A stretch of 64,000 nucleotides of DNA, taken from assembly GCA_004431415.1 (NCBI GenBank), contig QPMI01000457.1, forward strand, positions 248,001 to 312,000, given 5' to 3'. Source of the DNA: Cyanophora paradoxa CCMP329. Its lineage: Eukaryota > Plantae > Glaucophyta. The first letter of the stretch is position 1. Each line of letters starts with the position of its first letter. A program made the translations under genes and the position numbers. This document shows, in pieces, positions 1 to 26,649 of this stretch. Under the pieces are notes generated by a model. The model was given only the letters and a program-made list of their open reading frames with translations, was not told where the DNA came from and searched no databases.

Positions 1-2
1 AG

Positions 3-2506: not shown

Positions 2507-2705
2507 TTGTCAGGCAGCAAGAAGTTTGTCAGGCAGGAAACACATTGATTTTCACAAACGTTTCCAATTCTCAATGTCATTGTTTGAATCAACAATGAAA
2601 TTTTCATTATAGAAAAGTTTTCTAAAAAGGTGCCTGACAATGCCTGACATACTATATTAGTGCCTGACAACTATTTGAAAGTGCCTGACAAACCATTTAT
2701 GGTAA
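2507..2705 (-). repeat. Iteron-like TGTCAGGCA module, copy 1 (inverted relative to copies 2 and 3)
   Basis: Two TGTCAGGCA, an AT-rich spacer, then four TGCCTGACA. 2576..2705 is a near-exact reverse complement of 11056..11185. Confidence 0.85.
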
Positions 2706-2821
2706 CAGTATAGGAATTATCTCTGTTACCAAAAAATGACGAATCATAAACTACTTAAGGAAATCAAGCATATTGCAAAATGACAAAACATTTTTCTCGG
2801 TTATAGTTAAGAGACACCCAA

Positions 2822-3052
2822 ATGGATACTGATCAAACTGTAACTGAGAGCAAAAGTTTTGAGAAGATCTCTTCTGCAATGAAGAAAAAGATCTCAAACC
2901 AAATTTATTATAATAAAAGATATGAAGAGGATGAGGAATATCGTGAAATTCGCCGCAAAAGGGCATTAGCCTATTACTACTATAAAAAGCAACTCACAAT
3001 TGACCCAAATTTCCCAGAAGGTCGACCTGTAGGTCGTCCTCGGAAATACTGA
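2822..3052 (+). CDS. Small basic AT-hook-like protein
   Basis: KRYEEDEEYREIRRKRALAYYY...GRPVGRPRKY. Confidence 0.75.
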   Translation: MDTDQTVTESKSFEKISSAMKKKISNQIYYNKRYEEDEEYREIRRKRALAYYYYKKQLTIDPNFPEGRPVGRPRKY

Positions 3053-3226
3053 AATGCCGGTTCATTATTTTTGTATGGGGAATTCATAAAAAAACTGATA
3101 CACTACTACCAATAATCGATATAATTCGAAGCCAACCCAAAAGGACTTAAAGGTTTGGCAACAAAAAATGACAAGGATTTTCAGATAAAATATTTTATCT
3201 GCTTAATATAGAAACGTTCAAGAAAG

Positions 3227-5618
3227 ATGTTTAGCTCAAAGAAACCCAACAATCTCGATATCACTCTTATTGAAAAAGTATCTCGCCCTACTCTTAAGTA
3301 TTTAATCGATAATTTCGAGGGTTTGAGTTATAGACCAGATGTGGATTCTACTGCTACTTTGACTCTCCTGAAGAAATACATGAAAGACTTGCATTCAAAT
3401 GGAACCATTCAAGTTAAATACTATCAATGCAAACACCATACTGGGAGATATTTCACTACTCTCTCACACATCAAAAACAAAAAAGCAAGCATGCAGAGTA
3501 TGCCTCGGGAATTTAGACACACCTTAGCAAGGGATTTGTATTATGATATTGATATGAAAAATGCTCATCCATCGATACTCGTCCAGTATTGCCAAAAAAT
3601 GACATAAACTGTGATTTCCTTGCTGAGTTTGTTGCCAATCGAGATAAAATCGTTAGTGATTTAAGCAAAAAGTGTGATCTTACTCGTGAAGAAATTAAGT
3701 GCGCCTTCTTATCTGTGATTAACGGAGGAGGAGGCATTGAGTGTCCCGATTTACACAAAGAAATGGCTTTTAAAAAGGTTAAACAAGAAATTGGTGGTAT
3801 TCATGCTTCTATTGCTGAATTAAAAGAAAATACCAACTTCCTTGCTATTTGCAAGCGAAAGAAGGGCTACAATGTGTTAGGTTCCACTGTTAACATGGTT
3901 CTTTGTCAGATCGAGAATATTGCTCTTATGGCTCTGTGTGAGTATCTAACCTCCATCAAACTCACTGTTGGTGTTCTTGTATTTGATGGCTGCATGATTG
4001 AAAAGTCACCTAATCTATCACTGGAAAAACTTACTGATATTCTCAAAGATGCAGAGAACTATATCCAGCAGTCCACAGGATACAAATTAGGCTTAGTTGT
4101 TAAGCCTATGGATCAGGGTTTCGAGCTTCCAGATGAAGCTTCTCTGAAAGCAAACGATTTTCGAATTTGCTCTACAGACTATGAGGCTGCTACTCTGTTT
4201 GCTGAAGATATCAAAAATGATGTCAAGCAATCCAATGGTCGTATATTTGTCAAAACAGATGAGAACCTTTGGACTGAGGAAACCAATCAAGTGGAAAATA
4301 TGCTTTTAAAGAAGTGCCTTCAAGCAAAGATCTATCATGAGGGTCTGACAGGTCTAACAGAGTATACCGCAAATATAACAGGCGCTCAAAAAGTAATCAA
4401 AGCTACAAAAGCTCTTCTGCCAAATGATAGTGAGTTTGTGAATAATGTCCTTTGGTCTTCATCTCTTGGAAAATTGTGTTATAAAAATGGTGTGTATGAT
4501 TTCGAAACCAAAAAGCTTACTCCTTGGGCAGAGTGTCAAAACGTCTATTCCACTACTAGAATTGAAAGAGATTTACTTGTAGATGATCGAGGATATGTAG
4601 TCAAGCCGTCAGAAGAGCATATAAAAATCCTCTACGAAAACATACTTGAACCTGTGTTTGGAGCAGATGCAATTAATACTGCTCTCGAATTTACAGCAAG
4701 AGCAATGGCAGGCAAAGTAGAGGATAAACAATGGGGACTATCATCAGGTGAGCGCAATTGTGGAAAAGGAGTTTATGTCAATCTTAATGAGAACACTTGG
4801 GGGAGTGGTTATGTAAACACTATTGGAGGAGAATCTTTCCTGATGGACAAACATTCAGATTCTGATGAGGCTAAAAAGCTAAAATGGATGAAACCATGTG
4901 AATTTCGCCGTTTAACATTTACCCAAGAGATGAAGTTTGATGTTTCGAATCCAAGTATCAAGATAAATGGCAATATGATTAAAAAGAAAGAATCTGGTGG
5001 TGATATTCAATGCATTCGAATCCTATATGGAAATGAGCAAAATATAAGACTCCAAAGTAGGCTCTGGATGATCATGAATGATATGCCCCTGTTTCTCCAT
5101 CTGATACACTTGAGACTCTTGTTTTCTTTCAGCATCCCCACAAGTTTGTGGATCAGAAAACAATGGATGAAATGAAGCTCCCATGCTATAGATTGGCTTC
5201 TGAAGATATTAAAAGTGATCTGCTTAAACGCCCTGAAATCATTCATGCTTTCCAATGGTCAGTATTCCAAGCATACAAATCCCACAAAGTCCAGATATGT
5301 GGCAAGGTGGCAAATGATACTGCTGCTTTCAGAGAGGATGCAGGTGATGAAATTCAAATACTAAAAAGCAGATTTGAATTTACAGGAAATCCTTCTGATT
5401 CTCTGTCAAGCAAAACTGTAGATGAGGAGTTAAAAGCTTTGAAACTCAATATGTCTGCAAGCAGGGTTAAGAGAGTAATGGAGATGTTGGGAGCCAAATA
5501 TGACAAATATGCAGTGAGAAAGGCAACTTCAAAAGTATATGATAGAGGTTACAAGTGTGTAAAACTGATTTCGGAAAATACAACAGAGTTTATTGATGAG
5601 GATGATGATGATTGTTAA
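3227..5618 (+). pseudogene. TVpol (family-A polymerase-like primase) fused to SF3/D5 helicase; two apparent -1 frameshifts
   Basis: PolA-like motifs DIDMKNAHPSIL, INGG, QIEN and LVFDG; helicase Walker A GERNCGKG. Three ORFs join if one base is added to the A6 run (3594-3599) and one to the C4 run near 5087, so this may be a sequencing error rather than decay. Confidence 0.8.
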
Positions 5619-5622
5619 AAAG

Positions 5623-5768
5623 CTGTCAGGCACTGTCAGGCACCTTTCTATTTAACTTTTATAAGTTTATGGTTTCATTAGTTTTCTCAAACACTGACTT
5701 GAAAAAGTGACAGAGTTTCTTAATGTTGGCTGAATCAGCTGCCTGACAATCGAAGTCTGCCTGACGAT
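5623..5768 (+). repeat. Iteron-like TGTCAGGCA module, copy 2, immediately after the primase-helicase stop
   Basis: Two TGTCAGGCAC, about 100 bp of AT-rich spacer, then two TGCCTGAC. Confidence 0.8.
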
Positions 5769-5820
5769 TTAAAACAAATACATTATAATATTCTTATAAT
5801 AAAAAGTAGTAGTACCAACA

Positions 5821-6138
5821 ATGACAAGCTGGACTACCAGAATGAGTTCAATGATTGAGAACAAACATTTCGATAAAGATGATTTGAAGGATATACCAGC
5901 TCTTATAGACAAAATCATCAAATGCCAAAGCAAATGTGATGGGTATCAAATGTCACAACTTTCCTCCAAAGATATTGATTGTTTGCGATTACAAACAGAG
6001 AAAAACTTAATTAACGCCCTTAAACAGTATCACAAAAACCCAAATGTATGGACAAAAAATGGATCACATAATCCAATGCATTACAAAGCCAAATTGCGAA
6101 AGAAACTAGAAAATCGCGTTCAGAACATCTCAGAATAA
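5821..6138 (+). CDS. Hypothetical protein
   Basis: 105-aa ORF between helicase and PolB; no recognised motif. Confidence 0.5.
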   Translation: MTSWTTRMSSMIENKHFDKDDLKDIPALIDKIIKCQSKCDGYQMSQLSSKDIDCLRLQTEKNLINALKQYHKNPNVWTKNGSHNPMHYKAKLRKKLENRVQNISE

Positions 6139-6172
6139 AATATTTGTTGAGAGTAGGAACAAGTTAGGAACT

Positions 6173-9100
6173 ATGCCCCGAATCAGCAACAGACTCATAA
6201 GAGAGAAGAAATGGGAACTCATGGGATTACTGGGAACACTGTATGCAGCCCATGAAATCACAGAGGCTGAATATGACCGGGAAATCGGATTTATTTCAAG
6301 GGGCAGACCCACTTTAGCAAAATTAACCAGAAAAGCCAATAACCTCTATGACAAAGTTGAGACTCTTGATGAACTCGATCGCCTGAGGCAAATAGAACCA
6401 GAGGCAGAAGATGGCACAGCCATGAATGAATTATATCGCTGGCTCACATACAGAGCCAGAAGGGAAGTTGTTGTAGATGTGATTGAATATTTAGATAGAA
6501 TTGCAACCTCTCTTCCAAAACGTTTAAGAGACAGTCTAGATCAATTCAGGGCAATCAAAGTTCGCTTATCTTTTATCTGCAAGTTCGTTAAAGTCAGCAA
6601 TCCACAGGTTTGGATATCGAAATACATTTACAGTGATTATTTTGTATTAACCAAATCGAGAAATATTCGAACTGAGCTGAATAAAGCAGCCCAAATGTGT
6701 CAGGAACAGATGAATGTTGTTGATAGCTATCGACTTGAGAGAATCAAAATGCTAAGAGTTGCTATTATGAGTTATGCTCCAACTGGTGGCTGCTATGTTA
6801 AAACACCAGAATCAATTGCAGCCAAGAGAGCCACAGTGAATATTCGAAATATTGATGATTCTTGCTTTGAAAATGCCATTTTGGCATGGATCCATAGGAA
6901 AGATGTAAATTCCCACAAGAGAAGTGAGCTTACACAATATCGCAAATGGAAATACTCACCAACCACATACAATCCTTTGGCTCTCAATTTCGACAATATC
7001 CCATTCCCTGTTGCCTGTGATGCTGAAATAATTGATAAATTCGAGGCTCAAAATGCAGGCATTAGCATTAATATATTTGGAATCGATGGAGAGGTTATTT
7101 ATCCCCTGCATCAATCCAGCAACCCAGGCAGAAAGCAAAAGATTAATCTCATGCTCATTCATGATGATGAAGGGAATGGTCACTATATTACTATTATGTC
7201 ACTCTCAAGACTTCTCAGAGTTGCCCTTGATAAAACCAAGGATCAAAAGTTACACTACTGTGACACATGCTTATCTCGATTCAGGTCTGAGGCTAAACTC
7301 ACTGCTCATGTGGACTCAAATAGATGCATTGATTGGAGACTCTCAAAGGGAATCACACCAAAACCTGAGACCACCATAGAGTTTGGACTGAAAAACCTCA
7401 GGAAAACTGTTTGGCTTCCTGTTGTGGTTTACTGCAAGATTGAACATAGAAGCATCCCCATTGATGCATCAAAATCTAAGAGGGAAGTCTCAGCAGTCAA
7501 CCTGAGAGTAGTCACTGGGGCAGATGTTCAGGAGTTTCGATTTGAGGGTCAGGATCCAATGGGAGGTCTGTTTGAATGCTTGGAGTCCAAAGCAAGAGAG
7601 CTAATCGATTTCCTGTTCACCAATATTCCCATGAATGAACTCACAGATGAGCAAAAGGCTATTTACAGAGCTACCAAACACTGTTACCTTTGCAGTGAGA
7701 GGTTCACCAAGGAAAACTTCAAATGCAGGGATCATGATCACCACACAGGTAATTACATTGCACCTGCATGCAGAAACTGCAATCTCCATAGGAGAATCTC
7801 AAAGCAAACAAAAGTAGCAGTGGTTGTTGACCAAATGGATGACTGTGGGACATTCATTTTCAGAAAAATAGCAGGCATGGGTGATAAAAAGCGAATCGAA
7901 ATCCTTTCGAAAAACTTTGATCAATACCTTTCATTGCAATGGGGTCTTTACAAGTTCATTGATGCAAGTAATTTTATGGACTTTGGGGCTGCTGATGTAG
8001 ATGAGTTAATGAGCAAATTCCAGGCTTTCAGAAGGCTTTCACACTCAGTATATGGATTGGACCCAGTTCATTATGTATCTGCACCTGGGTTATCTTGGGA
8101 TGCTATGCTTAGGACCACCAAGGCAAAAATAGAGCTTATAAGTGATGTAGAGCAATACGAATTTGTTGAGAGGGGAATCAGGGGTGGCTTTGCAACAATG
8201 CCTTGTAGGTATGCTGAGGCTGATGGTGAAAACTCCCATATAATGCTGTTTGATGCTAACAACTTGTATGGCTACTGTTTGAGTCAGCCAATCCCAGTTG
8301 GTGATTTTAGATGGGAGACCGAATTCAACCCACAAGATAACAGATCCAGTTTCCTAGAAGTTGATCTGGATTACCCAATTAGGCTGTTTCTAGATCACAG
8401 TGATTTTCCCCTAATTATTAACAAGAAAATAGTAGAATATGCAGAATTATCACAATATCAAAAGAGCCTATTAGATCTCTCAGGAGAAGAGCTTGATAAG
8501 ACCCCTAAGCTAACTGCAACCTTTGGTTCTGTGACCAACTATGTGATTTCTGAGCCTCTTCTACAGTATCTGTTGGACAAAGGGGTGAAACTAAAGAAGG
8601 TTCACAGGGTCCTATCATTTACTGTGGCTCCTGTAATGAAACCCTACATTGAGCTGAATACTGAGATGAGAAGGAAAGCAGTGAATAAATTCGAGGCTGA
8701 TTTCTATAAACTCATGAATAACTCAATCTATGGGAAATGCATTGAATCTTGCAGAGGTAGATCTGTGGTTAAGATTGCAAACAGTGAGAAACTGTTTATG
8801 AAATATGCAGCTTCCCCATTGGTGAAATCAACAAGTCCCATAAACGAAAAAGCAGTTGCCTTTGAGTTTTACACAAAGCATGTGAAGCTAGATAAGCCAG
8901 TTGCTATTGGGGCTTATGTTCTGGATGCAGCCAAACTGCATAACTACAAGTTCTTCTATGATACTGTAAGGTCCCAATGGACAAAAGCAAAGTTACTATT
9001 CCATGATACTGACTCCTTTTGTCTATATATCGAATCTAAGACCCTCCAAGAGGACCTGGGGAATATCTCTTATGCATTGGACCTAGGGGGGTCTAACAGA

Positions 9101-9418
9101 ATGACCCCAGGTAAATACAAAAATGAAATGCCTGGCTCTGCTATATTGGAGTATGTGGGTCTGAGAGCAAAAGTTTACAGTTTCAGAACTGCTGAGATTG
9201 AGAGGAGTAAGCTCTCTGGGACTTCCACTGAGGAACTCCAATTTAATGATTTTAAGCAGTGTTTATTTGCAGGTATCAGCAAGACTGTGACTGCAAAGCA
9301 GAAAAGAAGGGCAGATCACACAATAATAGACACTGTGAGTAGAAGGGTTGCCCTAAACTGCTTTGATGCAAAGAGATACATCTTACCAGATGGTATTAAT
9401 TCTGTTCCTTTTAATTAA
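6173..9418 (+). CDS. polB: Protein-primed family B DNA polymerase (Polinton type) with degenerate 3'-5' exonuclease
   Basis: DANNLYG, YKLMNNSIYGK, FHDTDS and GLRAKVY motifs; EndoVII-like Zn insert CRDHDHHTG...CRNCN; N-terminal NIDDSCF...GHY region. Confidence 0.93.
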   Translation: MPRISNRLIREKKWELMGLLGTLYAAHEITEAEYDREIGFISRGRPTLAKLTRKANNLYDKVETLDELDRLRQIEPEAEDGTAMNELYRWLTYRARREVVVDVIEYLDRIATSLPKRLRDSLDQFRAIKVRLSFICKFVKVSNPQVWISKYIYSDYFVLTKSRNIRTELNKAAQMCQEQMNVVDSYRLERIKMLRVAIMSYAPTGGCYVKTPESIAAKRATVNIRNIDDSCFENAILAWIHRKDVNSHKRSELTQYRKWKYSPTTYNPLALNFDNIPFPVACDAEIIDKFEAQNAGISINIFGIDGEVIYPLHQSSNPGRKQKINLMLIHDDEGNGHYITIMSLSRLLRVALDKTKDQKLHYCDTCLSRFRSEAKLTAHVDSNRCIDWRLSKGITPKPETTIEFGLKNLRKTVWLPVVVYCKIEHRSIPIDASKSKREVSAVNLRVVTGADVQEFRFEGQDPMGGLFECLESKARELIDFLFTNIPMNELTDEQKAIYRATKHCYLCSERFTKENFKCRDHDHHTGNYIAPACRNCNLHRRISKQTKVAVVVDQMDDCGTFIFRKIAGMGDKKRIEILSKNFDQYLSLQWGLYKFIDASNFMDFGAADVDELMSKFQAFRRLSHSVYGLDPVHYVSAPGLSWDAMLRTTKAKIELISDVEQYEFVERGIRGGFATMPCRYAEADGENSHIMLFDANNLYGYCLSQPIPVGDFRWETEFNPQDNRSSFLEVDLDYPIRLFLDHSDFPLIINKKIVEYAELSQYQKSLLDLSGEELDKTPKLTATFGSVTNYVISEPLLQYLLDKGVKLKKVHRVLSFTVAPVMKPYIELNTEMRRKAVNKFEADFYKLMNNSIYGKCIESCRGRSVVKIANSEKLFMKYAASPLVKSTSPINEKAVAFEFYTKHVKLDKPVAIGAYVLDAAKLHNYKFFYDTVRSQWTKAKLLFHDTDSFCLYIESKTLQEDLGNISYALDLGGSNRMTPGKYKNEMPGSAILEYVGLRAKVYSFRTAEIERSKLSGTSTEELQFNDFKQCLFAGISKTVTAKQKRRADHTIIDTVSRRVALNCFDAKRYILPDGINSVPFN

Positions 9419-9421
9419 GAG

Positions 9422-10807
9422 ATGCCAGCAACTGGAAGAATAGTTAGGAGAACCACTGAGCAACTGCAAGGAAACCTACTGCCCATCACAGTTCCAAAGG
9501 AGGAAAAGGGGGAATCTCGAATTGTAAAAAAGTCTGAAATGAAAGAGCTTGTCCCAGTAGAGATTCCAGTTGCTATTGCAGTGAAAGAAACAAGCAAGAT
9601 TGCCAAGAGATTCTATGATGTGAGAACTGGTTACAAAGGGCTTCAAGCTATGAGGGCTGAGTTACCTGATGAATCCTATAAGCAGTTGCAAGAGTTCTAT
9701 AAAAAACAAGAAGTTGTTCAGATCAATGCACCTGCTATATCTAGGAAGAGAGATCCCATGGTCCCAATTAGGCAACCCCTTGATACCTATGTGATTGATT
9801 TGCTCTTTTTCCCAGCTTATAAGAAACAAAACAATGGCTATGATACCTTTATGACTGCAATGGAATCTACACTGAGAACTGGGTATATCATACCTATAAG
9901 GGATAAATCAGCTCTCACTACATTAGCTGCATTTAAACAGCTTGAAATGAGAGTGGCAAGACCCATAGTAAAGGTTCAATCAGATGCTGGGAGTGAGTTC
10001 CAAAATCGAATATTCCAGGAGTATTTATCTAGTAAATACATAGAACACCAAGTGAGTGGAACTGCAGACCACAGAAGCCAAGGTCGAATTGAAGCCTTTA
10101 ACAAGCAGATTAAGAGACTGATCACAAACTACTGCATAGCTAATAACACAGCTAGATTCTTTGATGTGTTGGGTGATATTGAGTTTAATTACAATAATAC
10201 AGTTCACTCAGCTACTAAGATGAAGCCAGGTGAAACTACAGAGGAGCATTATAGGTATATAGTGGGATTAGAAGATGAAAGATTCAAGAAATCAATAGCT
10301 TATCTTGATACCATGCAGCCTGGCATGTTTGTTAGAGTGAAAGTTGAGAAGAACCCCTTTGCTAAACAGGGTAACAATTGGTCTAGGATGGTTTACACTG
10401 TTGATAGTAGAGAAGGCTTTAAGTTTAAGCTAAAGAGTCCCACTGGAGAGATCATAGATAACAGGTTTGCTTTCCATGAGCTGTTGCCTGTGAATGCAGT
10501 TGAGTATCTGGAAGCCCCTACAGTGGATGCCTTAGAGCAAGCTAAAGAGGAAGCCAGGGCTGATGCTGCTATAAGGAGAGAAGGCATAGAAGCTGCTAAT
10601 GAAGTCCCAGATAAGCCTTTGATAGAGGCTAGAAAGGAGAAGGCTGGCAAAGTTAACAGGGAACTCAAAAAGCTCACTATAGCAGGCACACAGAAACTTT
10701 CAGAAGTGAATAGCCAGAGATGGTATAATGACTTTCAGACTACTAAGGAGTCATATACAGCCCCTAAACCTCAAAGAACACTAAGAGAAAGGACCAAAAC
10801 TAGCTAA
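9422..10807 (+). CDS. Retroviral-like (rve) DDE integrase
   Basis: YVIDLLF (D), QSDAGSEF (D), GRIEAFNK (E) and YNNTVHSAT. Confidence 0.92.
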   Translation: MPATGRIVRRTTEQLQGNLLPITVPKEEKGESRIVKKSEMKELVPVEIPVAIAVKETSKIAKRFYDVRTGYKGLQAMRAELPDESYKQLQEFYKKQEVVQINAPAISRKRDPMVPIRQPLDTYVIDLLFFPAYKKQNNGYDTFMTAMESTLRTGYIIPIRDKSALTTLAAFKQLEMRVARPIVKVQSDAGSEFQNRIFQEYLSSKYIEHQVSGTADHRSQGRIEAFNKQIKRLITNYCIANNTARFFDVLGDIEFNYNNTVHSATKMKPGETTEEHYRYIVGLEDERFKKSIAYLDTMQPGMFVRVKVEKNPFAKQGNNWSRMVYTVDSREGFKFKLKSPTGEIIDNRFAFHELLPVNAVEYLEAPTVDALEQAKEEARADAAIRREGIEAANEVPDKPLIEARKEKAGKVNRELKKLTIAGTQKLSEVNSQRWYNDFQTTKESYTAPKPQRTLRERTKTS

Positions 10808-11055
10808 TTAATAGCATCTAATAAGCATCTCCCCAAGATTCCCCCTATTATTAAAGTGGACTCAAGGTTGACTCATATTAATCGTAAAAGTAGTAATAGT
10901 ATATGGATTTTGTTACGAATTCAATGCAAGGGTTGACTAAGTGGGTTGAGTTGACTCAAATTTCACAGGAAATAACAATGAATCAGAGTATAAAATGCAT
11001 TATTTGAATCAACTACACCAACTAACACTGAGAAAGTAGGTTATAACATATAGTA

Positions 11056-11252
11056 TTACCATATATGGTTTGTCAGGCACTATAATATAGTTGTCAGGCA
11101 CTAATATAGTATGTCAGGCATTGTCAGGCACCTTTTTAGAAAACTTTTATAAAATTGAAATTTCATTGTTAATCCAAACAATGACTTAGCCAAAATAAAA
11201 TACTTTATGAAAATCGATAGATTTAATGCCTGACAAATAAATGCTGCCTGAA
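11056..11252 (+). repeat. Iteron-like TGTCAGGCA module, copy 3 (terminal region of A)
   Basis: TGTCAGGCA at 11071, 11092, 11112 and 11122; inverted copies at 11227 and 11245. Confidence 0.85.
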
Positions 11253-11316
11253 AGATTTAACACCAACTAACACTGAGATTTTCACAATATATGAGGTCCT
11301 TACTGAATATGGTTTG

Positions 11317-11425
11317 TGTGACAGGTGTGACAGGTTTATCCCGTGGATTTTAAAAATCAATTTCTCACTAGGACTTTCCTTGGGATTGACCTGTCACACC
11401 TGTCACACCTGTCACACCTGTCACA
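11317..11425 (+). repeat. Second iteron-like module, TGTGACAGG x2 / CCTGTCACA x4
   Basis: Direct copies at 11317..11334; four tandem inverted copies at 11390..11425. Confidence 0.85.
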
Positions 11426-11668
11426 CCCAATTTTATAAGGGTCCCCCCTTAGACTCAACAAAACAATGATAAAATCATATAAGTTTCATGTATAATTACG
11501 ATTGAATTCAATAAGAGATCGATTTGTTAATATAAACAAATGAATCTTTTATGGATCTTAATCGAGTTTAGCGATATATTTCCGATTAAATGAATTAAAT
11601 TTAATTAAATTTAATCGAGAAAGTACATGAATATAATATCGATTAAATCAATTAACTTTTAGACCAAT

Positions 11669-11954
11669 CACACATAGTAAAATGCGGAGTTTTAACCAGA
11701 GGCAAGATCTAATTGAGATTCAGTTATATTATTCGGAAATATATACAGATTATCGATTAACTCAGTAAGACTAATCGGAAAATAAGAGAAATTTACGATA
11801 AAATATCGAAAAGAATACAAAATAATCGAAATAATTGAATATTCGATAAGATATACACAGATTATCGATTGATTGAAATAGAATATACGAGATATATCAA
11901 CAAAATCAATTAAGATTAAGCCGAGGGTTAAAACTCCGCATTTTACTATGTGTG
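11669..11954. repeat. Terminal inverted repeat pair (29 bp perfect) at the right end of A
   Basis: CACACATAGTAAAATGCGGAGTTTTAACC (11669..11697) and its reverse complement (11926..11954). Confidence 0.9.
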
Positions 11955-12493: not shown

Positions 12494-12567
12494 GGATTGT
12501 CGCGGGCAAAATTTGATGTCATTTTTAATCCTTTGTCTATTTAAGGACAAGACGATAATAAGGTTTA

Positions 12568-13302: not shown

Positions 13303-13348
13303 TCAGGCTGTCGCGTTTCGTAATTTTTATATGTTTCTTATAAGGGAA

Positions 13349-15671: not shown

Positions 15672-15721
15672 AAAATACGACTGATAAAATATTTTCTCCG
15701 CTAATAGTAAGGAACGCGAAA

Positions 15722-15952: not shown

Positions 15953-16160
15953 AAAACGCAAACTCTCGATTGCCGCTGAGCTCATTCCTTATTTTTCGTG
16001 CGGCTTTCCGATGTAAATCGGGAAGCTCCTTACCATACTATCGGTTGCCCGATCGCAATCGATTTTATCACCGGGAAAAAACCGTAAAGGGATTTAAGGA
16101 TAATGCGCAAAAAATGAACAACCTGAAAATATTTTCTCCGCTTAGAGTAAAACAGAGAAG

Positions 16161-18782
16161 ATGGACGCTATCACGAAATTCGCATTCTCTAATGTCAAGG
16201 GCACCTTTCTGAAATGTCTGCAAGGTGCACGCAATAAGTCCAATTTGATTGAGTTAACCGATGATGAAATTATTGAGCGCATCAATAACTCAAAGAAACG
16301 GGACAATATGACCTTCCCTACCTGGGCGGAATGCATACAACCTGATCAAGTGACTCGTGTTTATCTGGATCTGGACAAGTTCGTAGATCTGAAACCTGAT
16401 GTTGCCGACAATTACAAGGAAGCCGAAGAGATCATCAGGGAAATGCGCAAGAAATTGCAAGACCTATCAGGATCTACTATTGCGGTTGCTGTTCGCCATC
16501 GGCGGGTTCATCTAATCCAAGAGAATGTCACTAAGTTCAAGATTTCCGGGCATTTCGTATTTACCGATCTTGTCTGCCGCCACGAAGACATTCCAAAGCT
16601 TTTTAAAGCGATGGGTCTCATCAAAAATGTTGAATTCGATAGTGGCGTTTATGGAACTACTCAAAACCTGATCTGCCTCCGTTGCTGCAAAGGCGAAGCT
16701 TTGGACGCTCAAAGCAAATCAAAGCACGATGTCGATAAGAATGTGGTGTTCACTAAGTTCATTGATTGCGAAAAAGAGGGCATGCACGATGGCTTTTTCC
16801 TGGTGCAATGTTTCGATCGCCCCACCAAGTGGGTGGAAGTAGACACCATGTCAGCCTTCGCGGTCGATAAACCAAAGGAAGCTACAAAGCCTGAGGAACC
16901 CAAGCAAACGGTGGCGCCCAAGTCTGTTAAGGACAAGCCCTGTAAAGAACCTGTGAAGAAGAAGGAGGAGGTGTTGGAGGATCTCAAAGAAAATAAGGTT
17001 TCGTTTGAACTGTTGCAAGAAGTCATTATGAGCCTCAGTGGAGAGAGAGCCAATGAGTATAAGACGTGGATCGATGTAGGCATTGCCATAATCAATACCT
17101 GCGAAGATAACAACATTTCTCGCAAGCAACAGGTAGAGCTTTTCCACAAGTTCTCGGAGAAAAGCGAAAAATATGATTATGATGACTGTCATGAGAAGTT
17201 CATGAGCCTTTGCAAAGGCAAGAAAATGGTGGAAGGAAAGCGGGTTACATTCGGTTCAATTGTTTACTGGCTGAAAAAGGATAACAGCGACAGTTATAAT
17301 AAGCTATTCCCCAAGAAATATTCGTTTCAGCCGGAGGATTCCGACGATATTGACTACAAGACTGCCCCCATTCCACCTATGGTCGATAGCTTTGAAGTCC
17401 ATCTGCGATATTTAAATGCTCGACTGCACCACATCGAGAGCATCGGCACTGTCATGTATTGGGATGAACAGCTGTTATCCTGGCGACCGAAAGATATTAC
17501 GAAATTGGCGACCAAACATTTTCCCCATCTGTTTCACAAGGTGATTCTCAATGAGGGGACTGAGAACCAAACCGAAAAGTGGGTAAAAACGCTTCCTGAA
17601 TGGATTACTGACCCAAGGGCGACACGATCCACTTATATGGATTTCCTGCCGCCTCCTGCAAAGCTGAGCGCGAAATGCAAGTCTGTATTCAATCTCTACC
17701 CTGGATTCAAGATTGATCATGAAGAATTCGAGGAGCCACCACCCGAGGATGTCACAGAGGAGATGATACAGCCTTTCCTGACACATCTATATTTAATGTC
17801 AGGCGAAGATGATAAGACATTCGATTATCTTAAAAAGTGGTTTGCCCACATGATGCAAAAGCCGGGGGAACTAAATAACGTGTCCCTCATCTTTCTAGGT
17901 CGCCAAGGCGCTGGAAAGAATATGCTCATTGATACCTTTGAGAAGAAGATACTCGGTGATGCATTGGCGTGCTCGACAGCCAAGCCAAAGGATGATCTAT
18001 TCGGGCGATTTGCTCACAATCGGGAGGATAAGATTATGATTGTGGTAAATGAAGCTTCTGGAAAGGATACCTTTGAACATAGCGACCTTCTCAAAGATAT
18101 AGTCACAGCCCCGAAGATTGTAATCGAGCACAAAGGAATAGACTCCTATGATAAAAAGAATTTCGCTCGAATCGTTTTCACAAGCAACAATACTGTCCCT
18201 GTGAAAATCGAGGCTGATGATCGTCGCTTTGTCGTTATTGAGGTGAGTGACAAACAGCGCTGTAATAAGGATTATTTCGCTCCGCTTGTTGAGTGGCTGA
18301 ATGATATGAGAAATATTCGCAATATCGTTCAGTATCTCAGGACGAAAGTAAATTGTGAGAAGGTCAATTGGAGTCAAGACAGACCGCTAACAAATCGATA
18401 CTACTTAGTTCAGCAAGCGGCTGCACCGATTATCCTTATGTTCGCGAAGTGGCTTGTCGATAGTGAGCGAGTTACAGAGCTGAAAACCAAGCTGGGCGGT
18501 CTTGCATCGACATGGGAATTGTTCAAAGACTTCATCTCTGAAAACAAATACAAAAACGATTATAATAGCAAGCGGTTCTATACTGAGATGCGCACGACTA
18601 CATATATTCAAGTGAAAACGACCAATGGAAAATCTAACTATCACTTCCTGTGGAATGAGATGATGGCTGAATTCCGAAAGTTGAAGCTAATCGATGATGA
18701 TTCGATTAAAGAAGATGATTCTCCTCAGCCGCAACCAAAGAAAAGGGGCACCAAATTCGAGGATTCCGATGTGGAAGCCTGA
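16161..18782 (+). CDS. AEP primase-polymerase + PriCT-2 + SF3 (D5-like) helicase
   Basis: AEP motifs YLDLD, SGH and FDSGVY; PriCT-2-like YKTWIDVGIAI...FSEKSEKY; helicase GRQGAGKN, VNE, FTSN and DDRRF. Confidence 0.9.
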   Translation: MDAITKFAFSNVKGTFLKCLQGARNKSNLIELTDDEIIERINNSKKRDNMTFPTWAECIQPDQVTRVYLDLDKFVDLKPDVADNYKEAEEIIREMRKKLQDLSGSTIAVAVRHRRVHLIQENVTKFKISGHFVFTDLVCRHEDIPKLFKAMGLIKNVEFDSGVYGTTQNLICLRCCKGEALDAQSKSKHDVDKNVVFTKFIDCEKEGMHDGFFLVQCFDRPTKWVEVDTMSAFAVDKPKEATKPEEPKQTVAPKSVKDKPCKEPVKKKEEVLEDLKENKVSFELLQEVIMSLSGERANEYKTWIDVGIAIINTCEDNNISRKQQVELFHKFSEKSEKYDYDDCHEKFMSLCKGKKMVEGKRVTFGSIVYWLKKDNSDSYNKLFPKKYSFQPEDSDDIDYKTAPIPPMVDSFEVHLRYLNARLHHIESIGTVMYWDEQLLSWRPKDITKLATKHFPHLFHKVILNEGTENQTEKWVKTLPEWITDPRATRSTYMDFLPPPAKLSAKCKSVFNLYPGFKIDHEEFEEPPPEDVTEEMIQPFLTHLYLMSGEDDKTFDYLKKWFAHMMQKPGELNNVSLIFLGRQGAGKNMLIDTFEKKILGDALACSTAKPKDDLFGRFAHNREDKIMIVVNEASGKDTFEHSDLLKDIVTAPKIVIEHKGIDSYDKKNFARIVFTSNNTVPVKIEADDRRFVVIEVSDKQRCNKDYFAPLVEWLNDMRNIRNIVQYLRTKVNCEKVNWSQDRPLTNRYYLVQQAAAPIILMFAKWLVDSERVTELKTKLGGLASTWELFKDFISENKYKNDYNSKRFYTEMRTTTYIQVKTTNGKSNYHFLWNEMMAEFRKLKLIDDDSIKEDDSPQPQPKKRGTKFEDSDVEA

Positions 18783-19000
18783 CCCCACCCTACACCCCAC
18801 CTGGTTTCATTCTAACATTGATATATCTTATTTTTATAACTTAAAACACATTTAATTCAGTGTTAAGTATGGTAATTAATACAGGGTGGGGAGGGTGGGG
18901 TTGGGTGGGGTCTTTTTTGCCCAAAATTTTTGGGTGGGAGAATTTTTTATTGGAACTCAAAAAATGCCCCACCTCACCCCACCCTCCCCACCCTATCGAA
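18783..19000 (+). repeat. Iteron-like CCCCACC/GGTGGGG module, copy 1, immediately after the primase-helicase stop
   Basis: Two CCCCACC, an AT-rich spacer, three GGGTGGGG, a spacer, then three CCCCACC. Recurs at 25956 and 26431. Confidence 0.88.
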
Positions 19001-19039
19001 AAATAAAAACGTCAGCTATTTACCACGTATACAATCGGC

Positions 19040-19894
19040 TTACGTTTCTACGGTTATGTTTATATAATCCATTATGAAGTGTTTTTTGAGTAGTTCAATG
19101 GTTTGCTCGACAGTTGACGTTTCCCATGTGAAAACCCTAACCCTATTGCAATTGAGGGATTTTGGTATATCCTTCCTGTTCAATGGGACTCGAAAACCTA
19201 TGGTAACCTGAACCCCATCGAGCGAACTGCACTCTGCTAACCGATTTATGAATTGCTTTCTGTCAGCTCTGAACTTCTCAATATCGTCCTCACGGCTTTC
19301 TTCCATTGATTCAATGAAGTCCGTTGCCCACATCGCGAACGCTCTTAAATTCATTTCTTTCTGAAAGCGTTCAAGCCATTTTTCGTCCCTGAGGCGCCTT
19401 TGGTGTTCCTCAAACATCCTCTGGTGTTCCTCGAATAATCTAATGCGTTCTGCTCTTTGCTCTCTCTCCGCTTCTTCTTCTTTCAGTCTTTCATGCTGCT
19501 CCTCGATCCACCTCTGACGTGCAATGAGTGGGCGACACTTCTTACAGTAGTTGTCTTTGCGGTTCCTGTGACGATCCCCACAGTGCTTACAAACATCACA
19601 GCGGAACTCTTTGGGAATAAAGCGTTTTATACAGCAATTTCCAACAACAACAGGGATCTTTTTGGCGACATGCAATATATAACACTGCTCCACTATTTCA
19701 TGCGTGCATGCACATGTAGGGGAATCCCGAGGGAGATGATGTAGGTCTAAATCGTATTTTTTCAGTTTGGTCGAGAGCAACCCAAGGTTTTTGTTACTTC
19801 CTAAGCTTACATAGTCATGGAAATCATCAGAGCCACACAGGTCGCGCAAGGCTTCCTTTAAGCGCTCCAAATAGGACATCGGTTTCGCCGCCAT
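19040..19894 (-). CDS. Cys/His-rich Zn-binding protein with coiled coil
   Basis: CACTHEI...VGNCCIKRF...CKHC...CKKC, a pattern seen in large DNA virus proteins; function unknown. Confidence 0.65.
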   Translation of the reverse strand: MAAKPMSYLERLKEALRDLCGSDDFHDYVSLGSNKNLGLLSTKLKKYDLDLHHLPRDSPTCACTHEIVEQCYILHVAKKIPVVVGNCCIKRFIPKEFRCDVCKHCGDRHRNRKDNYCKKCRPLIARQRWIEEQHERLKEEEAEREQRAERIRLFEEHQRMFEEHQRRLRDEKWLERFQKEMNLRAFAMWATDFIESMEESREDDIEKFRADRKQFINRLAECSSLDGVQVTIGFRVPLNRKDIPKSLNCNRVRVFTWETSTVEQTIELLKKHFIMDYINITVET

Positions 19895-20024
19895 GCTCTT
19901 TACAATTACAGACGGAAAACGTTTTTCATGTCATTTTTTGCATTCTCTTTAAATGATTTCCGACATTCTACATCGGGTAAACGCGTCCTTTCTCGAAAAT
20001 TAAAATGTTCCCTTAGAGTAAAAG

Positions 20025-23000
20025 ATGCCCCGCCAAACCAACCGCCTTATAAAAGAGAAAAAAGACGAAATATTAGGCTTGTTAGGTAGTCTTTTAGTCA
20101 CTGGGGAGATCACCGAAGCCGAATACGATCGGAGGGCGGCGATCTTAGATCGAAAACCCCGCTTAGCTAACCTTGCGAATATTGCCGACGAGCTCTACAA
20201 TCGCCTGGAAAATGTGGAGCGCTTCTATACCGAAGGGAGGCGCTTAGCCGTCATAGAACCCGATGAGGACGACGGTTTCGCAATGAATAAAGCATACGCC
20301 TGGTATAGCTATAAGGCGGATGAACAGATAATCTTAGATCCGGTGGAATTTCTCACTACAATCGCTGCAAATCTGCCTGGGCGGCTGAAAGAGAGGCTGG
20401 ACGAGCTTAAAGCTATTAAGGTGCGCCTTACTTTCATCTGCCGATACGTAAAAGTGAGTGATCCTAACGTTTTTATCACCAAACACATTTACAGCGATTA
20501 TTTCGTAATCACAAGGTCGCGCAATATTCTCACTGAGTTAGTGGGTGTAGCTCAGCAAATGAATGAACAGATGATACAGGTCGACAGCTATCGGCTCAGT
20601 AAATTAGATAAGCTACATGTCGTCGTTTTGTCATATGCGCCGGTGGGCGGGTGCTACATTGAGACCCCCGAATGGATTGGATTAAAGCGAGCCACAGTAA
20701 ATATTAAGAATATCGATGGTCACGACTGTTTTAATTACGCTATCCTCGCATGGCTGCACAGAAACGACATAAACAGACACAAACGTAATGATCCGTTCCA
20801 ATATAGGCAGTGGATGACTGAACTCGACTTCTCAGGCATTAATTTCCCGGTGGCTTGCGATGCTGCATTAATAGATCGTTTCGAGGACAATAATCCCGAG
20901 CTGTCAATTAATATATATGGCGCCGATAATGCGACCCAAACCTTTTATCCACTGCACATGTCAAGTAATCCGCGTCGTAAATCAAAGGTAAACCTGCTGC
21001 TGACCGAGGACGCAAACGGACAGGGTCACTATATTACGATTATGTCACTGAGCCGCCTCTTAAAGACCACCTTTGATAAAGCAAACGACGGGCGCATTTT
21101 CTACTGCGAAACCTGTTTGTCCCGATTCAGATCACAGGACAAACTCGATAAACACACCGAATCTAATCGCTGTATCGATTGGAGAATGAGTAAAGGTAAA
21201 TGCCCGGAACCCGGAAGCTTTATTACTTTCGGACTGCAACACCTAAGGAAAATGGTGTGGCTGCCCACTGTCTGTTACTGCAAAGTAGAGATGGAGTCGG
21301 TGCCGGTTCCTAATGAACCAAACCGAAGCAAGCGAGAGGTAAAGTCGGTGGCACTTAATGTTGTTATGGGCTCGCATGTTGAAAATCACGAATTCGAGGG
21401 GGTGGATCCGCTGGGTCAGATGTTTACCACGTTAGGGGATCTGTGCCGCGAGATGCTTAATACCCTATTTACCAACACACCTATGATCCCGCTCACAGAG
21501 GCGCAAAAGCAAGCCTATAAGCTCACCAAGCACTGCTACATATGCAATCAGCGGTTTACCCACGAAAACTTCCCTGTCCGCGATCACTGTCACCAAAGCG
21601 GCGATTATATAGGGAAAGCTTGCCGAAAGTGCAATTTACATAGGAGGATCTCAAAGCAAACGAAAGTAGCCGTGGTTATTGATCGGATGGACGAGTGCGG
21701 GCATGCTATATTCCGGAAAATCGCACAGCAAGACGATAAGCTGCGGGTCGAGATCCTAAGTAAGAATTTCGACGAGTATCTATCTTTACAGTGGGGACTT
21801 TACAAGTTTATAGACGCCTCGAATTTCATGGATTTTCAGGCGTCCGATGTTAATGATCTCATGGTAAAATTCGGTAAATTCAGTATGCTCGCCCATGAGC
21901 AATACGGACTGGATCCCACGCATTATGTGAGCGCACCGGGACTATCGTGGGACGCGATGTTAAAGCATACGAGGGTCGCGATAGAACAGATCAGTGATGC
22001 GGATCAATACGAATTTATTGAGCGGGCAATTAGGGGCGGCTTTGCGACCATGCCCACACGATATGCCGAGGCTAATAGCGAGGATAAACATATAGTCCTA
22101 TTGGATGCGAATAATCTATATGGCTATGGGCTCAGTCAGCCTTTACCGGTCGGGGACTATCGCTGGGACGACACAAGCACAGCTTTTACCGAGGTTGTAG
22201 GGCGGAGTGCATTTATAGAGGTCGACCTTGCGTATCCGGACTATTTAAAGGCTGACCATCGCGATTTCCCGCTGATCGTGAGTAAAGAGGTAATTACTGC
22301 GGACATGCTGAGCGCATATCAGCGTGGGCTTTTGGAGATTAGCGGCGAGAAGCTAAGTAAAGATCCGAAGCTGATCGCCTCATTTACTCCGAAATATAAT
22401 TACGTGGTCTCTCAGCCGATGCTGCTCTATATGGTAAAAAAGGGGATCGTAGTTACTTAGATCCACCGGGTGCTCTCGTTTGCAACCGCTGCATTTATGA
22501 AGCCCTATATAGATCTAAACACGAAACTGCGAAAGGAAGCCCGGAATAAATTCGAGAGCGACTTCTTTAAATTAATGAATAATGCTATTTACGGTAAATG
22601 CCTGGAATCGTGTCGCGGGCGCTCCGTGGTAAAGATCGCGAATAGCACGAAGCTGTTTAAGAAATACGCCGCGAGCCCACTGGTAAAAGCGACGAATGTA
22701 TTAAACGAAAACGCTGTTGCATTCGAAATGTATAGTAAACACGTAAAACTCGATAAACCGGTGGCTATTGGCGCTTATGTGCTGGATGCCGCGAAGCTGC
22801 ATAATTATAGCTTCTTTTACGACGTGATCCGACCCACCTGGTCGCAAGCTCAGCTGCTGTTCCACGATACCGACTCGTTCTGTCTGTATATAGAGACCGC
22901 GGATCTGGAAGCGGGTATGCGAGCGATCAGCCCCTATTTAGATTGCCCTTATAGTCCCGAGAACCGGATGGTTCCCGGTAAATATAAAAATGAGATGCCC

Positions 23001-23288
23001 GATGTAAAGATAGTGGAGTATGTGGGGCTGCGACCGAAGCTATATGCTTTCCGCACCGAGAGCTACGACAAGGTAAAAATGAGCGGGACAGCCTCGAAAG
23101 AGGTGCATTTCGACGACTTTAAGCGCTGCCTATTTGACGGGATCACAAAAACAGTAACAGTAGTAAACAAGCAACGGCGATGCCACCACTTATATGATTT
23201 GGAGAGCAAGCGGATAGCGCTGACCCAATTCGATAGCAAGCGCTGCATATCAGGCGACGGCATACATAGCCTTCCATTCGGCTGTTAG
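20025..23288 (+). pseudogene. polB: Protein-primed PolB of B with an in-frame TAG at 22458-22460
   Basis: Colinear with A PolB across the stop (GIVVT*IHRVLSF versus GVKLKKVHRVLSF); DANNLYG, KLMNNAIYGK and FHDTDS are present. Confidence 0.9.
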
Positions 23289-23449
23289 TCGTCTATCTTA
23301 TCGTGCGTTCTTTTTCTTGGTTTGCGCTCTAATTGAAGGAGCTGTCGCCTTAGGATATGGAGAAGCCATATGCACCGTAAAAAGGGGTCGTCCGGGTCGA
23401 TTAGGAAGTAATTAGGGATCGGGTGCGCGTCCCATACCGGGGCGTCCAT
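23285..23449 (-). CDS. Possible 54-aa small protein
   Basis: Manual translation MDAPVWDAHPIPNYFLIDPDDPFLRCIWLLHILRRQ...; converges on the PolB stop; no homologue in the window. Confidence 0.3.
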   Translation of the reverse strand: MDAPVWDAHPIPNYFLIDPDDPFLRCIWLLHILRRQLLQLERKPRKRTHDKIDD

Positions 23450-23682
23450 TCTACTGTTTACTGCACGTTTTTATTGCGCATTTTACAGTGTTTACTTGTA
23501 AAGTTTACAAGTAAAACGCTCAGGTAGCCTGATTTTATTGACAGTAAACGTGAGAGTCTCACCGCGGATCGCTGTAAAAAATGAAAGCCCCGTGGGCAAC
23601 ACAAAATGATTTAAGGAGAACGCGCTACATTTAGGCAACAGGAAAATATTTTCTCAGCTTAAAGTAAAAGGCGACGGCGAAA

Positions 23683-24291
23683 ATGGCGTATCTGTTCAAA
23701 GGACAACCTATTTTCGTTTATCCTCTTTCGGATCTATCATTTAGCACCGTGGAACTATTTGATATCCTCTTTTCATTTGATACTGATCGAATGCCATTTA
23801 CCTTTGTAAATACAATCTTTCGTAGAGCCGATATTCAATCTATTGGTTTCTTTATTGAAGAACCGCACAAGATAGTCATTCGATCAGTAAATAATGTGTT
23901 TGCGTATGTAAGAGCATCCAACGATGAGATATCCTATAAGTATACCATCAAGAAAGTAAATGATGAAGACGAGGGAGGATATCAACCTGTTCTGGATTTC
24001 TGGCGTCTCGTAAGATGCACACAATATAAGATGACTGATGTAATCAAAGCCATAAAGCGTGAGCACGAACCACAGTCGATACAGCTTATCTATTTCAATG
24101 TTAAACGCAATCTGTCCACATATCATAAGAAGTTTGAAGAGCATGGACTGCAAATTACCCGCCGCACCACCTTGCGTAAATTCTTAAAAGACAATGGAGC
24201 GAAATGGAGTCGCGTTAGCCGAATGTGGTATACTGACGTTAGTAATCCTAATAGAATCGTTGCCAATATATTCTGTCCCAATTTACCGTAA
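23683..24291 (+). CDS. Hypothetical protein between PolB and integrase
   Basis: 202-aa ORF preceded by the conserved promoter-like motif; absent from A. Confidence 0.65.
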   Translation: MAYLFKGQPIFVYPLSDLSFSTVELFDILFSFDTDRMPFTFVNTIFRRADIQSIGFFIEEPHKIVIRSVNNVFAYVRASNDEISYKYTIKKVNDEDEGGYQPVLDFWRLVRCTQYKMTDVIKAIKREHEPQSIQLIYFNVKRNLSTYHKKFEEHGLQITRRTTLRKFLKDNGAKWSRVSRMWYTDVSNPNRIVANIFCPNLP

Positions 24292-24354
24292 ATAAACAAT
24301 ACCTTCTATTGTTTGGTGCGAGTAAAATGTTACATTGATCTTTTTTATTGTCTG

Positions 24355-25797
24355 ATGACAAGGATGTCAAGACCGCCAATAGTAAGACGATCGCAAGATT
24401 TAGAGGGGAACACATTGCCGATCCCCGTGCCGAAAGAGAATAAAGAGAGCCGCATAGTAAAGCGGTCTGATTTAAAGGCTTTGGTGCCCCGCGACGTGCC
24501 CGTAGCCCTTGCTGTCCCGGAGGAATCGAAAATCGCGAGGAAGTTTTATAGTCCGCAAACCGGTTTCAAAGGGATCACTAAGCTACGGCAAGAGCTGCCC
24601 GACGAGAATTATAAGAAATTGCAAGAGTGGTATAGCCGGCAAGAGGTCGTTCAGATTAATGCGCCGCACCTATCCCGCAAACGAGACCCCGCAATCCCGA
24701 TCCGACAGCCTCTCGATACCTACGTAATTGATCTGCTATTCTTTCCGGCGTATGCTAAGTATAACGATAATTACAGTGCTTTTCTCACGGCTATGGAGAA
24801 CACTTTGCGGGTCGGGTTCATTATCCCAATGCGGGATAAGTCCGCGGCGTCGACCTTAGCCGCCTTTATACAGCTGCAAAATAAGGCGCCGAGACCTGTG
24901 GCAAAGCTCAGTAGCGACCGCGGTTCAGAATTCACTAATAACCTGTTCAAAGAATACTTAGAGAGTCAATTCATAGAGCATCAGGTCGCGGACACAGCCG
25001 ACCATCGTGCGCAAGGGCGCATAGAAGCATTTAACAAGCAAATGCGGCGGCTGATCACGAGCTACTGCATCGCGAATAATACGGCTCGATTTATAGATGT
25101 CCTTTCGTCTCTGGAATATAACTATAATAATACGGTGCACTCTGCGACCGGCTATATGCCTGCGGAGACCAACGAGAGTCACTATAAGCTTATAGTGCAA
25201 AAAGAAGATGCGAAATTCAAGAAATCGATAGCTTATTTGGATCAGATTCAGCCGGGCATGTCAGTAAGGCTACGGATCGAGAAGACGCCGTTCGCTAAGG
25301 GCGGTAACAATTGGAGCCGAATCGTATATACAGTCGCCGGGCGAGAGGGCTATAAGTTTATGCTAACTGATCCGGACGGCAATCGCGTAGAGGGTCGCTT
25401 TGCATTTCACGAGCTATTGCCTGTCCAAGCTGTGGATTACCTAATGGCGCCCACAGTAGACGCATTAGAAGCGGCAAAGGACGAGGCGCGGGTCGATGCG
25501 CAATTGCGTAGAGAGGGCATAGAAGCCGCCGCCACTGTGCCACAAGGCACTCTATTAGAGGATCGCGTGCAAAAAGAGAAACGAGTAAATAAAGAATTAC
25601 AGCGGCTAGTAACCGCCGCGGAGCCTAAGCTATCCGGCGGCGTGAATAGCCAACGATGGTATAAGTCGTTCTCTAATCAAACTGAGAGCTACAAAGCGCC
25701 GGAAACCAAAGCTACATTAAGAAGTAGTAGAAAAGTAGCAACGGTAGCGCCGGTAGTTAATGGCGATCGAAAAGCGACTCTGAGACCACGAAAGTAG
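24355..25797 (+). CDS. Retroviral-like (rve) DDE integrase (element B)
   Basis: YVIDLLF, SSDRGSEF, GRIEAFNK; colinear with the A integrase. Start is 24355 or 24364. Confidence 0.92.
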   Translation: MTRMSRPPIVRRSQDLEGNTLPIPVPKENKESRIVKRSDLKALVPRDVPVALAVPEESKIARKFYSPQTGFKGITKLRQELPDENYKKLQEWYSRQEVVQINAPHLSRKRDPAIPIRQPLDTYVIDLLFFPAYAKYNDNYSAFLTAMENTLRVGFIIPMRDKSAASTLAAFIQLQNKAPRPVAKLSSDRGSEFTNNLFKEYLESQFIEHQVADTADHRAQGRIEAFNKQMRRLITSYCIANNTARFIDVLSSLEYNYNNTVHSATGYMPAETNESHYKLIVQKEDAKFKKSIAYLDQIQPGMSVRLRIEKTPFAKGGNNWSRIVYTVAGREGYKFMLTDPDGNRVEGRFAFHELLPVQAVDYLMAPTVDALEAAKDEARVDAQLRREGIEAAATVPQGTLLEDRVQKEKRVNKELQRLVTAAEPKLSGGVNSQRWYKSFSNQTESYKAPETKATLRSSRKVATVAPVVNGDRKATLRPRK

Positions 25798-25955
25798 TAG
25801 GCGCCGCGGTGCTTTCGTAGCCGCCAAATCGCGCCCTTTGCGAATCAGACCGCGCCGCTTTGTAGTAGCGTAGAACTACTCTATGCGCACTTATCCCTTT
25901 CGTATCCAATTCGTGTTCACTAAATTATATCGCACTGATTCAGTTTGCATTTTGC

Positions 25956-26649
25956 CCCCACCCTACACCCCACCCTATACTACAATCACGTTATTTCTAT
26001 ACATATTTTCTATCTAATTTCATAGAGTTTATACATTGAATAAGTGAGGTGTATCGATAAGTAATACAGGGTGGGGAGGGTGGGGTTGGGTGGGGTCTTT
26101 TTTGCCCAAAAATATTTGACCCCCCAAAAATTTAAGGGATTCAAAAAAATGCCCCACCTCACCCCACTTACCCCACCCTATCGAAGTCTGCACGATATCG
26201 TAGTAGGCTTCATCGGGATTGCGATCATATCACAGTGTATACAGTGAGGGTGGTGCCCCACTTTCTCACCCCACCCTATTGATATAGCGATCGCGAAATA
26301 TACAGCACATGATACTTGTTTTTCTTAGTGATCGCGCCGTTCTAATACGATCTGAATATATCATATCTCGTCGGTATCACGTCGGTTCAATATCGTAATT
26401 ATTAAATGGTTGGCTGATACCACCTTCACACCCCACCCTCACACCCCACCCGGTATTAATTTAACATACATAATCTCTATACTTTATACATTAATCACAT
26501 TGAAATCAATCATAAATATAATAAAAGATACAGGGTGGGGTAAGTGGGGTTGGGTGGGGTCTTTTTTGACCAAAAATATTTGAGGGGGAATTATTTTAGG
26601 GAATTCAAAAAAATGCCCCACCTCACCCCACCCGCCCCACCCTATCGAA
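25956..26649 (+). repeat. Two further CCCCACC/GGTGGGG modules in the terminal region of B
   Basis: 25956..26185 and 26431..26649 repeat 18783..19000, including the ATACAGGGTGGGG...TCTTTTTTG...AAAAAATGCCCCACCTCACCCCAC...CCCTATCGAA frame. Confidence 0.88.

Follow-up and report, generated by a model that had tools for sequence, protein, structure and literature searches.

Where does DNA copying begin in Polinton-like elements that encode a primase-helicase beside a protein-primed B-family DNA polymerase (pPolB), and what determines the sequence that such a helicase reads? The question is raised by a window of 64,000 nucleotides, the whole stretch of DNA that we analysed, whose first 47 kb are AT-richer and whose remainder has 70% GC. 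This remainder encodes an axonemal dynein heavy chain, which points to a flagellated eukaryotic host, likely a protist. At the border between viral and host DNA we also observe a 767-bp segment with 40-nt inverted ends (46795-47561), possibly a host miniature transposon.

Three Polinton-like elements lie in the window, with only their right parts within view: A (1..11953, plus strand), B (11954..26976, plus strand, right end inferred) and C (26977..46300, right boundary approximate), a more distant relative used as an internal control. The visible part of A comprises a packaging ATPase, small genes, the helicase cassette, pPolB, an integrase and the terminal region, and that of B starts with a truncated major capsid gene. 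The right end of A is placed at 11953, where a contig from another run (X15) stops; the capsid-gene fragment resumes in frame at 11954. Both A and B terminate in ATGTGT after a short inverted repeat, which in A has 42-nt arms (11669..11954) and in B lies at 26906-26976. The capsid fragment that continues in frame past 11953 and the shared ATGTGT ends suggest that A inserted in B and B in C, A apparently within the capsid gene of B and B apparently within a gene of C.

Assignment to the Polinton-like elements is based on pPolB and a retroviral-like integrase, the matches to the latter being below the Pfam cut-off. In A, pPolB occupies 6173..9418 (plus strand; PF03175, E 2e-13) and the integrase 9422..10807 (plus strand; PF00665, E 1e-4, below cut-off). 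In B, pPolB occupies 20025..23288 (plus strand; split in the window by an in-frame stop) and the integrase 24355..25797 (plus strand). With pPolB 58-66% and integrase 65% identical, A and B are sisters, C being more distant. Pox_A32 matches the A32-like ATPase of all three. The capsid gene was recognized in C by Atlas features (0.98), the fragment in B is 36% identical to that of C, and the capsid gene of A lies outside the window. Element C also encodes a fibre-like protein of 1745 aa that has internal repeats and a chaperone domain of the Peptidase_S74 type (27655-32892), next to a patatin-like gene.

The original prediction held that A and B carry different primase-SF3 helicases at one syntenic slot, of TVpol type in A and of AEP-PriCT-2 type in B; our analysis agrees and finds the two to be non-homologous. 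The A protein (3227..5618, plus strand) combines a TVpol-like domain, a D5-like SF3 ATPase and a predicted winged-helix tail. In the window its gene is split over three frames. Each frame break is crossed, with one gap, by contigs from other runs, so that the breaks are likely copy-specific or assembly errors. Compared by eye with the available part of PMC2579912, the primase domain shows the TVpol features (the hairpin Arg, two palm aspartates and RxxxK), and the motifs GRYF, DIDMKNAHP, REEIK and VFDG were likewise picked out by eye; a library profile search with this domain gave no match. The C-terminal 178 residues are predicted to fold (pLDDT 83) in the strand-helix-helix-hairpin order of a winged helix. 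Foldseek returned weak PDB matches for this model, including RFX5 (E 0.11, prob 0.97) and ASFV PrimPol, and stronger matches among viral folds, including the Zamilon replication protein (E 1e-5). The tail of the A helicase is thus a predicted winged helix.

The B protein (16161..18782, plus strand) consists of an N-terminus which we take to be AEP-type from motifs compared by eye with an AEP consensus, followed by PriCT-2, a DUF5906-type SF3 ATPase and a likely winged-helix tail. A low-confidence model of its helicase part matches the structures of NrS-1, SaPI PriRep and D5. Pox_D5 matched the tails of the B clade weakly in 6 of 12 cases and did not match B's own tail, a region in which the B model is poor, so that the winged helix in B is likely by way of its homologues. 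Sequence searches of the PDB with the A and B helicase tails gave no match, and comparing A-type with B-type tail profiles revealed no similarity.

Element-specific modules of short repeats had been predicted within 0-6 bp of the helicase stop codons, and we find them 5 nt away in A and 0 nt away in B. In A, the stop codon ends at 5618 and the first TGTCAGGCA begins at 5624, within a module (5623..5768) of two TGTCAGGCA copies, a 97-nt spacer and two reversed copies. The spacer has 69% AT, which is modest against about 62% for the whole element. In B, the stop codon ends at 18782 and CCCCACC begins at 18783, opening a module with three arms (18783..19000): two CCCCACC, an 82-nt spacer (79% AT), three GGGTGGGG, a 56-nt spacer and three CCCCACC. 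Both modules are likely origins. A contig carrying a variant of B (X2, 18396-18857) joins the end of the helicase gene to the module.

Recurrence of each module in the terminal region of its own element is also borne out, at 11056-11252 in A and in two copies in B (25956..26185 and 26431..26649) with a 464-nt period and a partial arm at about 26252-26276. By terminal region we mean the vicinity of the right ends; the left ends lie outside the window, so that these copies are not demonstrably part of a terminal inverted repeat. The further block predicted at 2507 upstream of the A helicase is real as well, but inverted (2507..2712, minus strand). It is a near copy of the terminal module (137 nt, 91%), agreeing with the terminal block in 175 of 215 columns and with the post-helicase block in 105 of 218 (a 57-nt overhang counted). 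Within the cassette we also find a small basic ORF ending in GRPRKY (2822..3052, plus strand), the second such paralogue in A.

The 9-mer TGTCAGGCA occurs 14 times in A, never in B and once in C, and CCCCACCC occurs 19 times in B and in neither A nor C. A module scan found four blocks each in A and B (one of those in B being a coding hit at 24674), compared with means of 0.02 and 0.03 blocks, and a maximum of one, in 200 shuffles. No module was found in the visible part of C, which also shows no primase-helicase despite its pPolB and integrase. Among copies within one element the repeats are conserved and the spacers drift. An Rfam search of 1-28000 gave no match, and the repeat units of A are absent from the GC-rich host part of the window. 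The terminal region of C (45513-46223) contains tandem repeats of 155, 37 and 41 bp and a stray TGTCAGGCA at 45968, which was not scored as a module.

The terminal region of A consists of two tandem slots 245 nt apart. Slot 1 (11015..11259, plus strand) lies between the copies of a perfect 19-bp direct repeat and contains a leader followed by the TGTCAGGCA module. Slot 2 (11260..11430, plus strand) has the same 19-bp repeat and a similar leader, the leader pattern being derived from its own hits, and carries a TGTGACAGG module (11316-11428) whose matching helicase is absent from view. When viral contigs were searched with a TGTGACAGG-type pattern, 66 loci resulted, and a scan of 26 candidate genes placed an SF3 helicase gene beside the pattern in at least 19 of them, which makes slot 2 a likely origin for a helicase outside the view. 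Ahead of slot 1, a weak inverted pair of GTTGA-like units ends in the 19-bp repeat (10940-11023), possibly a third, decayed module.

Some copies of A lack slot 1, as seen from contig joints 11014-11260 (X15) and 11020-11265 (X1), and three DNA runs have about 200 nt of different sequence ahead of 11298. Summed contig depth, which does not equal copy number, is 190-690 over 2236-5811 and mostly 8,000-35,000 over the flanking genes. At single sites in three runs, the depth ratio of terminal module to helicase is 2.5-2.9 and that of one pPolB site to helicase 5.6-6.2; X15 has no contigs over the A helicase and is uninformative here. The contrast between helicase and pPolB is small in B. These depths hint that only a minority of copies has the A cassette, and that the terminal slot occurs in this minority alone. 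Modules thus look to be gained and lost as whole units. Such gain and loss is a better reading than the predicted co-evolution of terminal repeats with the primase, given that the terminus of A also carries a module foreign to its helicase and that the cognate module is missing from some copies. Lying 330-1020 nt from the inferred ends, the terminal modules are not themselves the protein-priming sites.

Alignment searches yielded 36 helicase loci in relatives (L030 and L032 are one contig, and four loci end inside the gene), while single-protein locus searches with the A or B helicase found no relatives. A search with the pPolB of A gave four distant elements (32-34% identity), which served as helicase-free controls. 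In the automatic scan, 19 of the 36 helicase loci had a wholly or mostly non-coding module with a locus-specific unit, and none of the four helicase-free pPolB-integrase loci had one. Ten further loci have degenerate or cut modules by eye, and L011, L013 and L034 have none in view. The locus-specific units include GAGGAC, TGACA, GCAACAG and CTAGGCA with A-type helicases, and ATGACGGGG, TGTAGGG, ACGGAAG, ACGGACAG and TGGAGGG with B-type helicases. The module follows the helicase stop codon in 15 relatives; in 14 the nearest block is 0.4-3.3 kb upstream of the helicase, which we count against the origin reading. One unit occurs at two separate sites in each of L009, L012, L017 and L036. The helicase of L017 lies, like that of A, between an inverted copy upstream and a further copy downstream.

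Some of these loci show further arrangements. In L013, an A-type helicase is followed by a tandemly repeated long hairpin without short repeats (9975-10324). Two GC-rich contigs contain tandem helicase-plus-module units (L036, 3878-10300; L035, 5198-8033), possible free-standing mobile replicases, and one L036 helicase is extended at its C-terminus by a further domain that faintly matches DUF2726. The helicase is the only evident replicase in the relatives whose gene lists were examined. None of the retrieved relatives combines pPolB with such a helicase, and therefore the pairing in pPolB elements is seen in A and B alone.

Which part of the helicase the repeat follows can be considered from these loci. 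The TVpol-like domain is found fused to helicases of either clade and accompanies many repeat types, so primase type does not predict the repeat, contrary to the prediction that terminal repeats co-evolve with the acquired primase. Helicase tails were then compared over 26 loci, with repeat intervals chosen by hand, post hoc. Of 17 pairs whose tails have 70% identity or more, all drawn from three kin groups, 13 had the repeat in common; of 15 pairs with tail identity of 50-70%, none did, though the ATPases of the latter are 77-85% identical. L028 and L031, for instance, are close relatives with ATPases 85% identical and with different repeats. The predicted co-segregation of repeat type with helicase clade thus holds only at the higher tail identities and is lost at 50-70%. 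Overall, the correlation of repeat and tail is weak (Mantel rho 0.22) and no better than that with the ATPase (0.24). An automatic motif-versus-tail test over 20 loci was null (rho 0.05), the automatic choice having taken coding or second repeats in several loci. The trees leave out L007, L010, L019 and L032 (near-duplicates or cut), L034 and L037-L040; one tree omits 11 further rows in which the Walker A pattern was missed, and another omits L044 and L072. On this evidence, the repeat appears to follow the helicase tail among close relatives only, and not the primase. The pattern fits fast turnover of specificity and is no proof of co-evolution. Of the initiator-origin pair predicted for each element, the exchangeable slot, the origin-like blocks and the possession of its own block by each element stand, and the tying of repeats to the primase falls.

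The same heptamers are also found beside phage helicases of other types, a further point against the origin reading. The heptamer of A adjoins AEP-D5 proteins in one phage family, where it occurs twice per contig in five contigs, and DUF5906-type helicases in another. A search with the repeat pattern of A gave 57 loci, one of which matched the A-type profile, 1.35 kb away, and nine of which have a DUF5906-type phage helicase about 100 nt upstream. The repeat pattern of B gave 37 loci; none matched the SF3 profiles, and in five other primase or helicase genes adjoin the motif. As far as sequence goes, these heptamers beside unrelated phage helicases show convergence. In the phages L044/L082, L048/L049 and L072/L076, a TGTCAGGG module occurs twice per contig, once just upstream of the AEP-D5 gene and once by the packaging genes.

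The closest known layout is that of the pri-rep-ori region of SaPIs. According to the available parts of PMC9371898 and 10.64898/2026.10.17.759575, SaPI Reps bind iterons through a C-terminal winged helix, and directly 3' of rep these iterons flank an AT region in opposite orientations, with two or more on either side. A and B resemble this system, especially the fused PriRep5 of SaPI5 as described there, in having a primase-SF3 helicase with a C-terminal winged helix, predicted in A and likely in B, and element-specific iteron-like repeats directly 3' of the gene, facing around an AT-rich region. In contrast to SaPIs, A and B reside in a eukaryotic host, belong to elements with double jelly-roll capsid genes, also encode pPolB and integrase, have TVpol-like or AEP primases, carry extra blocks near the element end, and are known here from sequence alone. 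We considered and rejected membership of the SaPI/PICI class, given a eukaryotic host flank with axonemal dynein, which is not that of a bacterial phage satellite.

In satellite phage P4, a circular replicon, the alpha protein unites primase, helicase and origin-binding domains, its primase is of Toprim type, and ori1 and crr carry the same repeat. Like P4, A and B have primase and helicase domains in one protein with a putative origin-binding tail, and one repeat recurring at separate sites, without the Toprim primase, and the phage loci L044/L082 and L048/L049 show this two-site layout with an AEP-D5 protein. Features of the TV-Pol described for Sputnik and Zamilon are present in the A protein, and the fold of its tail matches that of Zamilon; in the available parts of PMC2579912 and PMC3671162, TV-Pol and prim-pol domains are reported to displace each other on D5-like helicases and no origin is described, whereas A carries candidate origin blocks. 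The combination of pPolB with a primase-helicase is called uncommon in the available part of PMC3671162.

In polisuviruses, PolA and AEP replicases alternate in syntenic tandem genomes and some elements have two replicases; repeats bracket the replicases, and terminal repeats were proposed as the primase-helicase origin (PMC11296320; 10.64898/2026.10.13.758929, available parts). The literature thus already covers the swapping of replicases, elements with two of them, and terminal repeats in the role of origins. The same parts of these papers resolve no iterons, pair no repeat unit with a helicase tail and describe no terminal array of origin slots: the word 'iteron' does not occur in the available text of PMC11296320, and that of 10.64898/2026.10.13.758929 uses 'origin' once, in another sense, and mentions a 'small repeat array' in the legend of its Fig. 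6. We found no paper that resolves iterons in virophages or Polinton-like viruses, in a search outside of which lay most subscription papers, figures and preprint supplements. New here are the swapped pair of helicases, each with its candidate origin, in elements that have pPolB and integrase, and an array of candidate origin slots that varies between copies.

Because the blocks have the same layout as SaPI iterons, we take them to be, probably, iteron-type origins read by the C-terminal winged helix of the adjoining SF3 helicase, helicase and origin together likely forming an exchangeable cassette within this family of Polinton-like viruses. By analogy with SaPIs, Rep-like hexamers would load on the facing repeats and melt the AT-rich spacer, and the fused primase would start synthesis. 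The outcome could be internal RNA-primed initiation alongside protein priming, or the opening of subterminal DNA for pPolB. Specificity would sit in the helicase tail rather than in the primase, and recombination between short direct repeats would insert or remove terminal modules as complete slots, as a consequence of which old or foreign origins may persist in terminal slots.

The cassette might instead be a selfish, mobile passenger, a helicase unit invading the virus and seeding its ends while the virus itself is copied by protein priming alone. This would account for its apparent restriction to a minority of A-family copies, for the presence of pPolB and integrase without a cassette in C, for the inverted and direct blocks that bracket the helicase in A and L017, and for the tandem units of L035 and L036; mobile helicases invading terminal repeats (PMC11296320) and repeats bracketing replicases (10.64898/2026.10.13.758929) were proposed earlier in the available parts of these papers. 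Nevertheless, the slot is identical in A and B, beside the same small basic gene, variant copies retain the B gene with its block, and the helicase is the sole evident replicase wherever gene lists of relatives were examined. We consider the passenger unlikely; the blocks would even then retain their origin function, and only the beneficiary would differ.

We think it improbable that the blocks are unrelated to the helicase, being either non-autonomous miniature transposons or sites for another factor such as the small basic proteins, the integrase, or a host or giant-virus transcription factor. Slot 1 does look like an insertion, with its perfect 19-bp direct repeat and its absence from some copies, a non-cognate block is present, and small basic ORFs lie nearby. 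However, in A and B the distance from helicase stop to block is 0-5 nt, 15 relatives likewise have the block downstream of the helicase, a search by pattern only led to adjoining SF3 helicase genes in at least 19 of 66 loci, the units of A were not found in the GC-rich host part, and 1-28000 gave no Rfam match. C, moreover, has a similar small ORF and an integrase, yet no block. As for chance or faulty assembly, suggested by the frameshifts and nested repeats of the window, the shuffle controls refute it, independent contigs with variant letters span the blocks, and the same layout recurs in unrelated contigs, leaving it a negligible probability.

More speculatively, the terminal region may be an expandable array of origin slots of differing specificity, served in trans by several helicases from co-resident endogenous viruses, a possibility that we regard as doubtful. 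Equally tentatively, a newly arriving helicase cassette would bring a slot of its own and in this way take control of the element. If such an array exists, it would imply plasmid-like incompatibility and a helper network among integrated eukaryotic viruses. The terminus of A, in which slot 1 is present or absent by copy, suggests a concrete way in which the replicase turnover inferred from phylogeny could come about, and the sister elements, each with its own helicase and a candidate origin to match, are ready for a reciprocal binding test. The start of replication in Polinton-like viruses with primase-helicases, proposed earlier, is here narrowed to candidate sequences, which, if they are origins, would give these viruses an exchangeable second way to start DNA copying.
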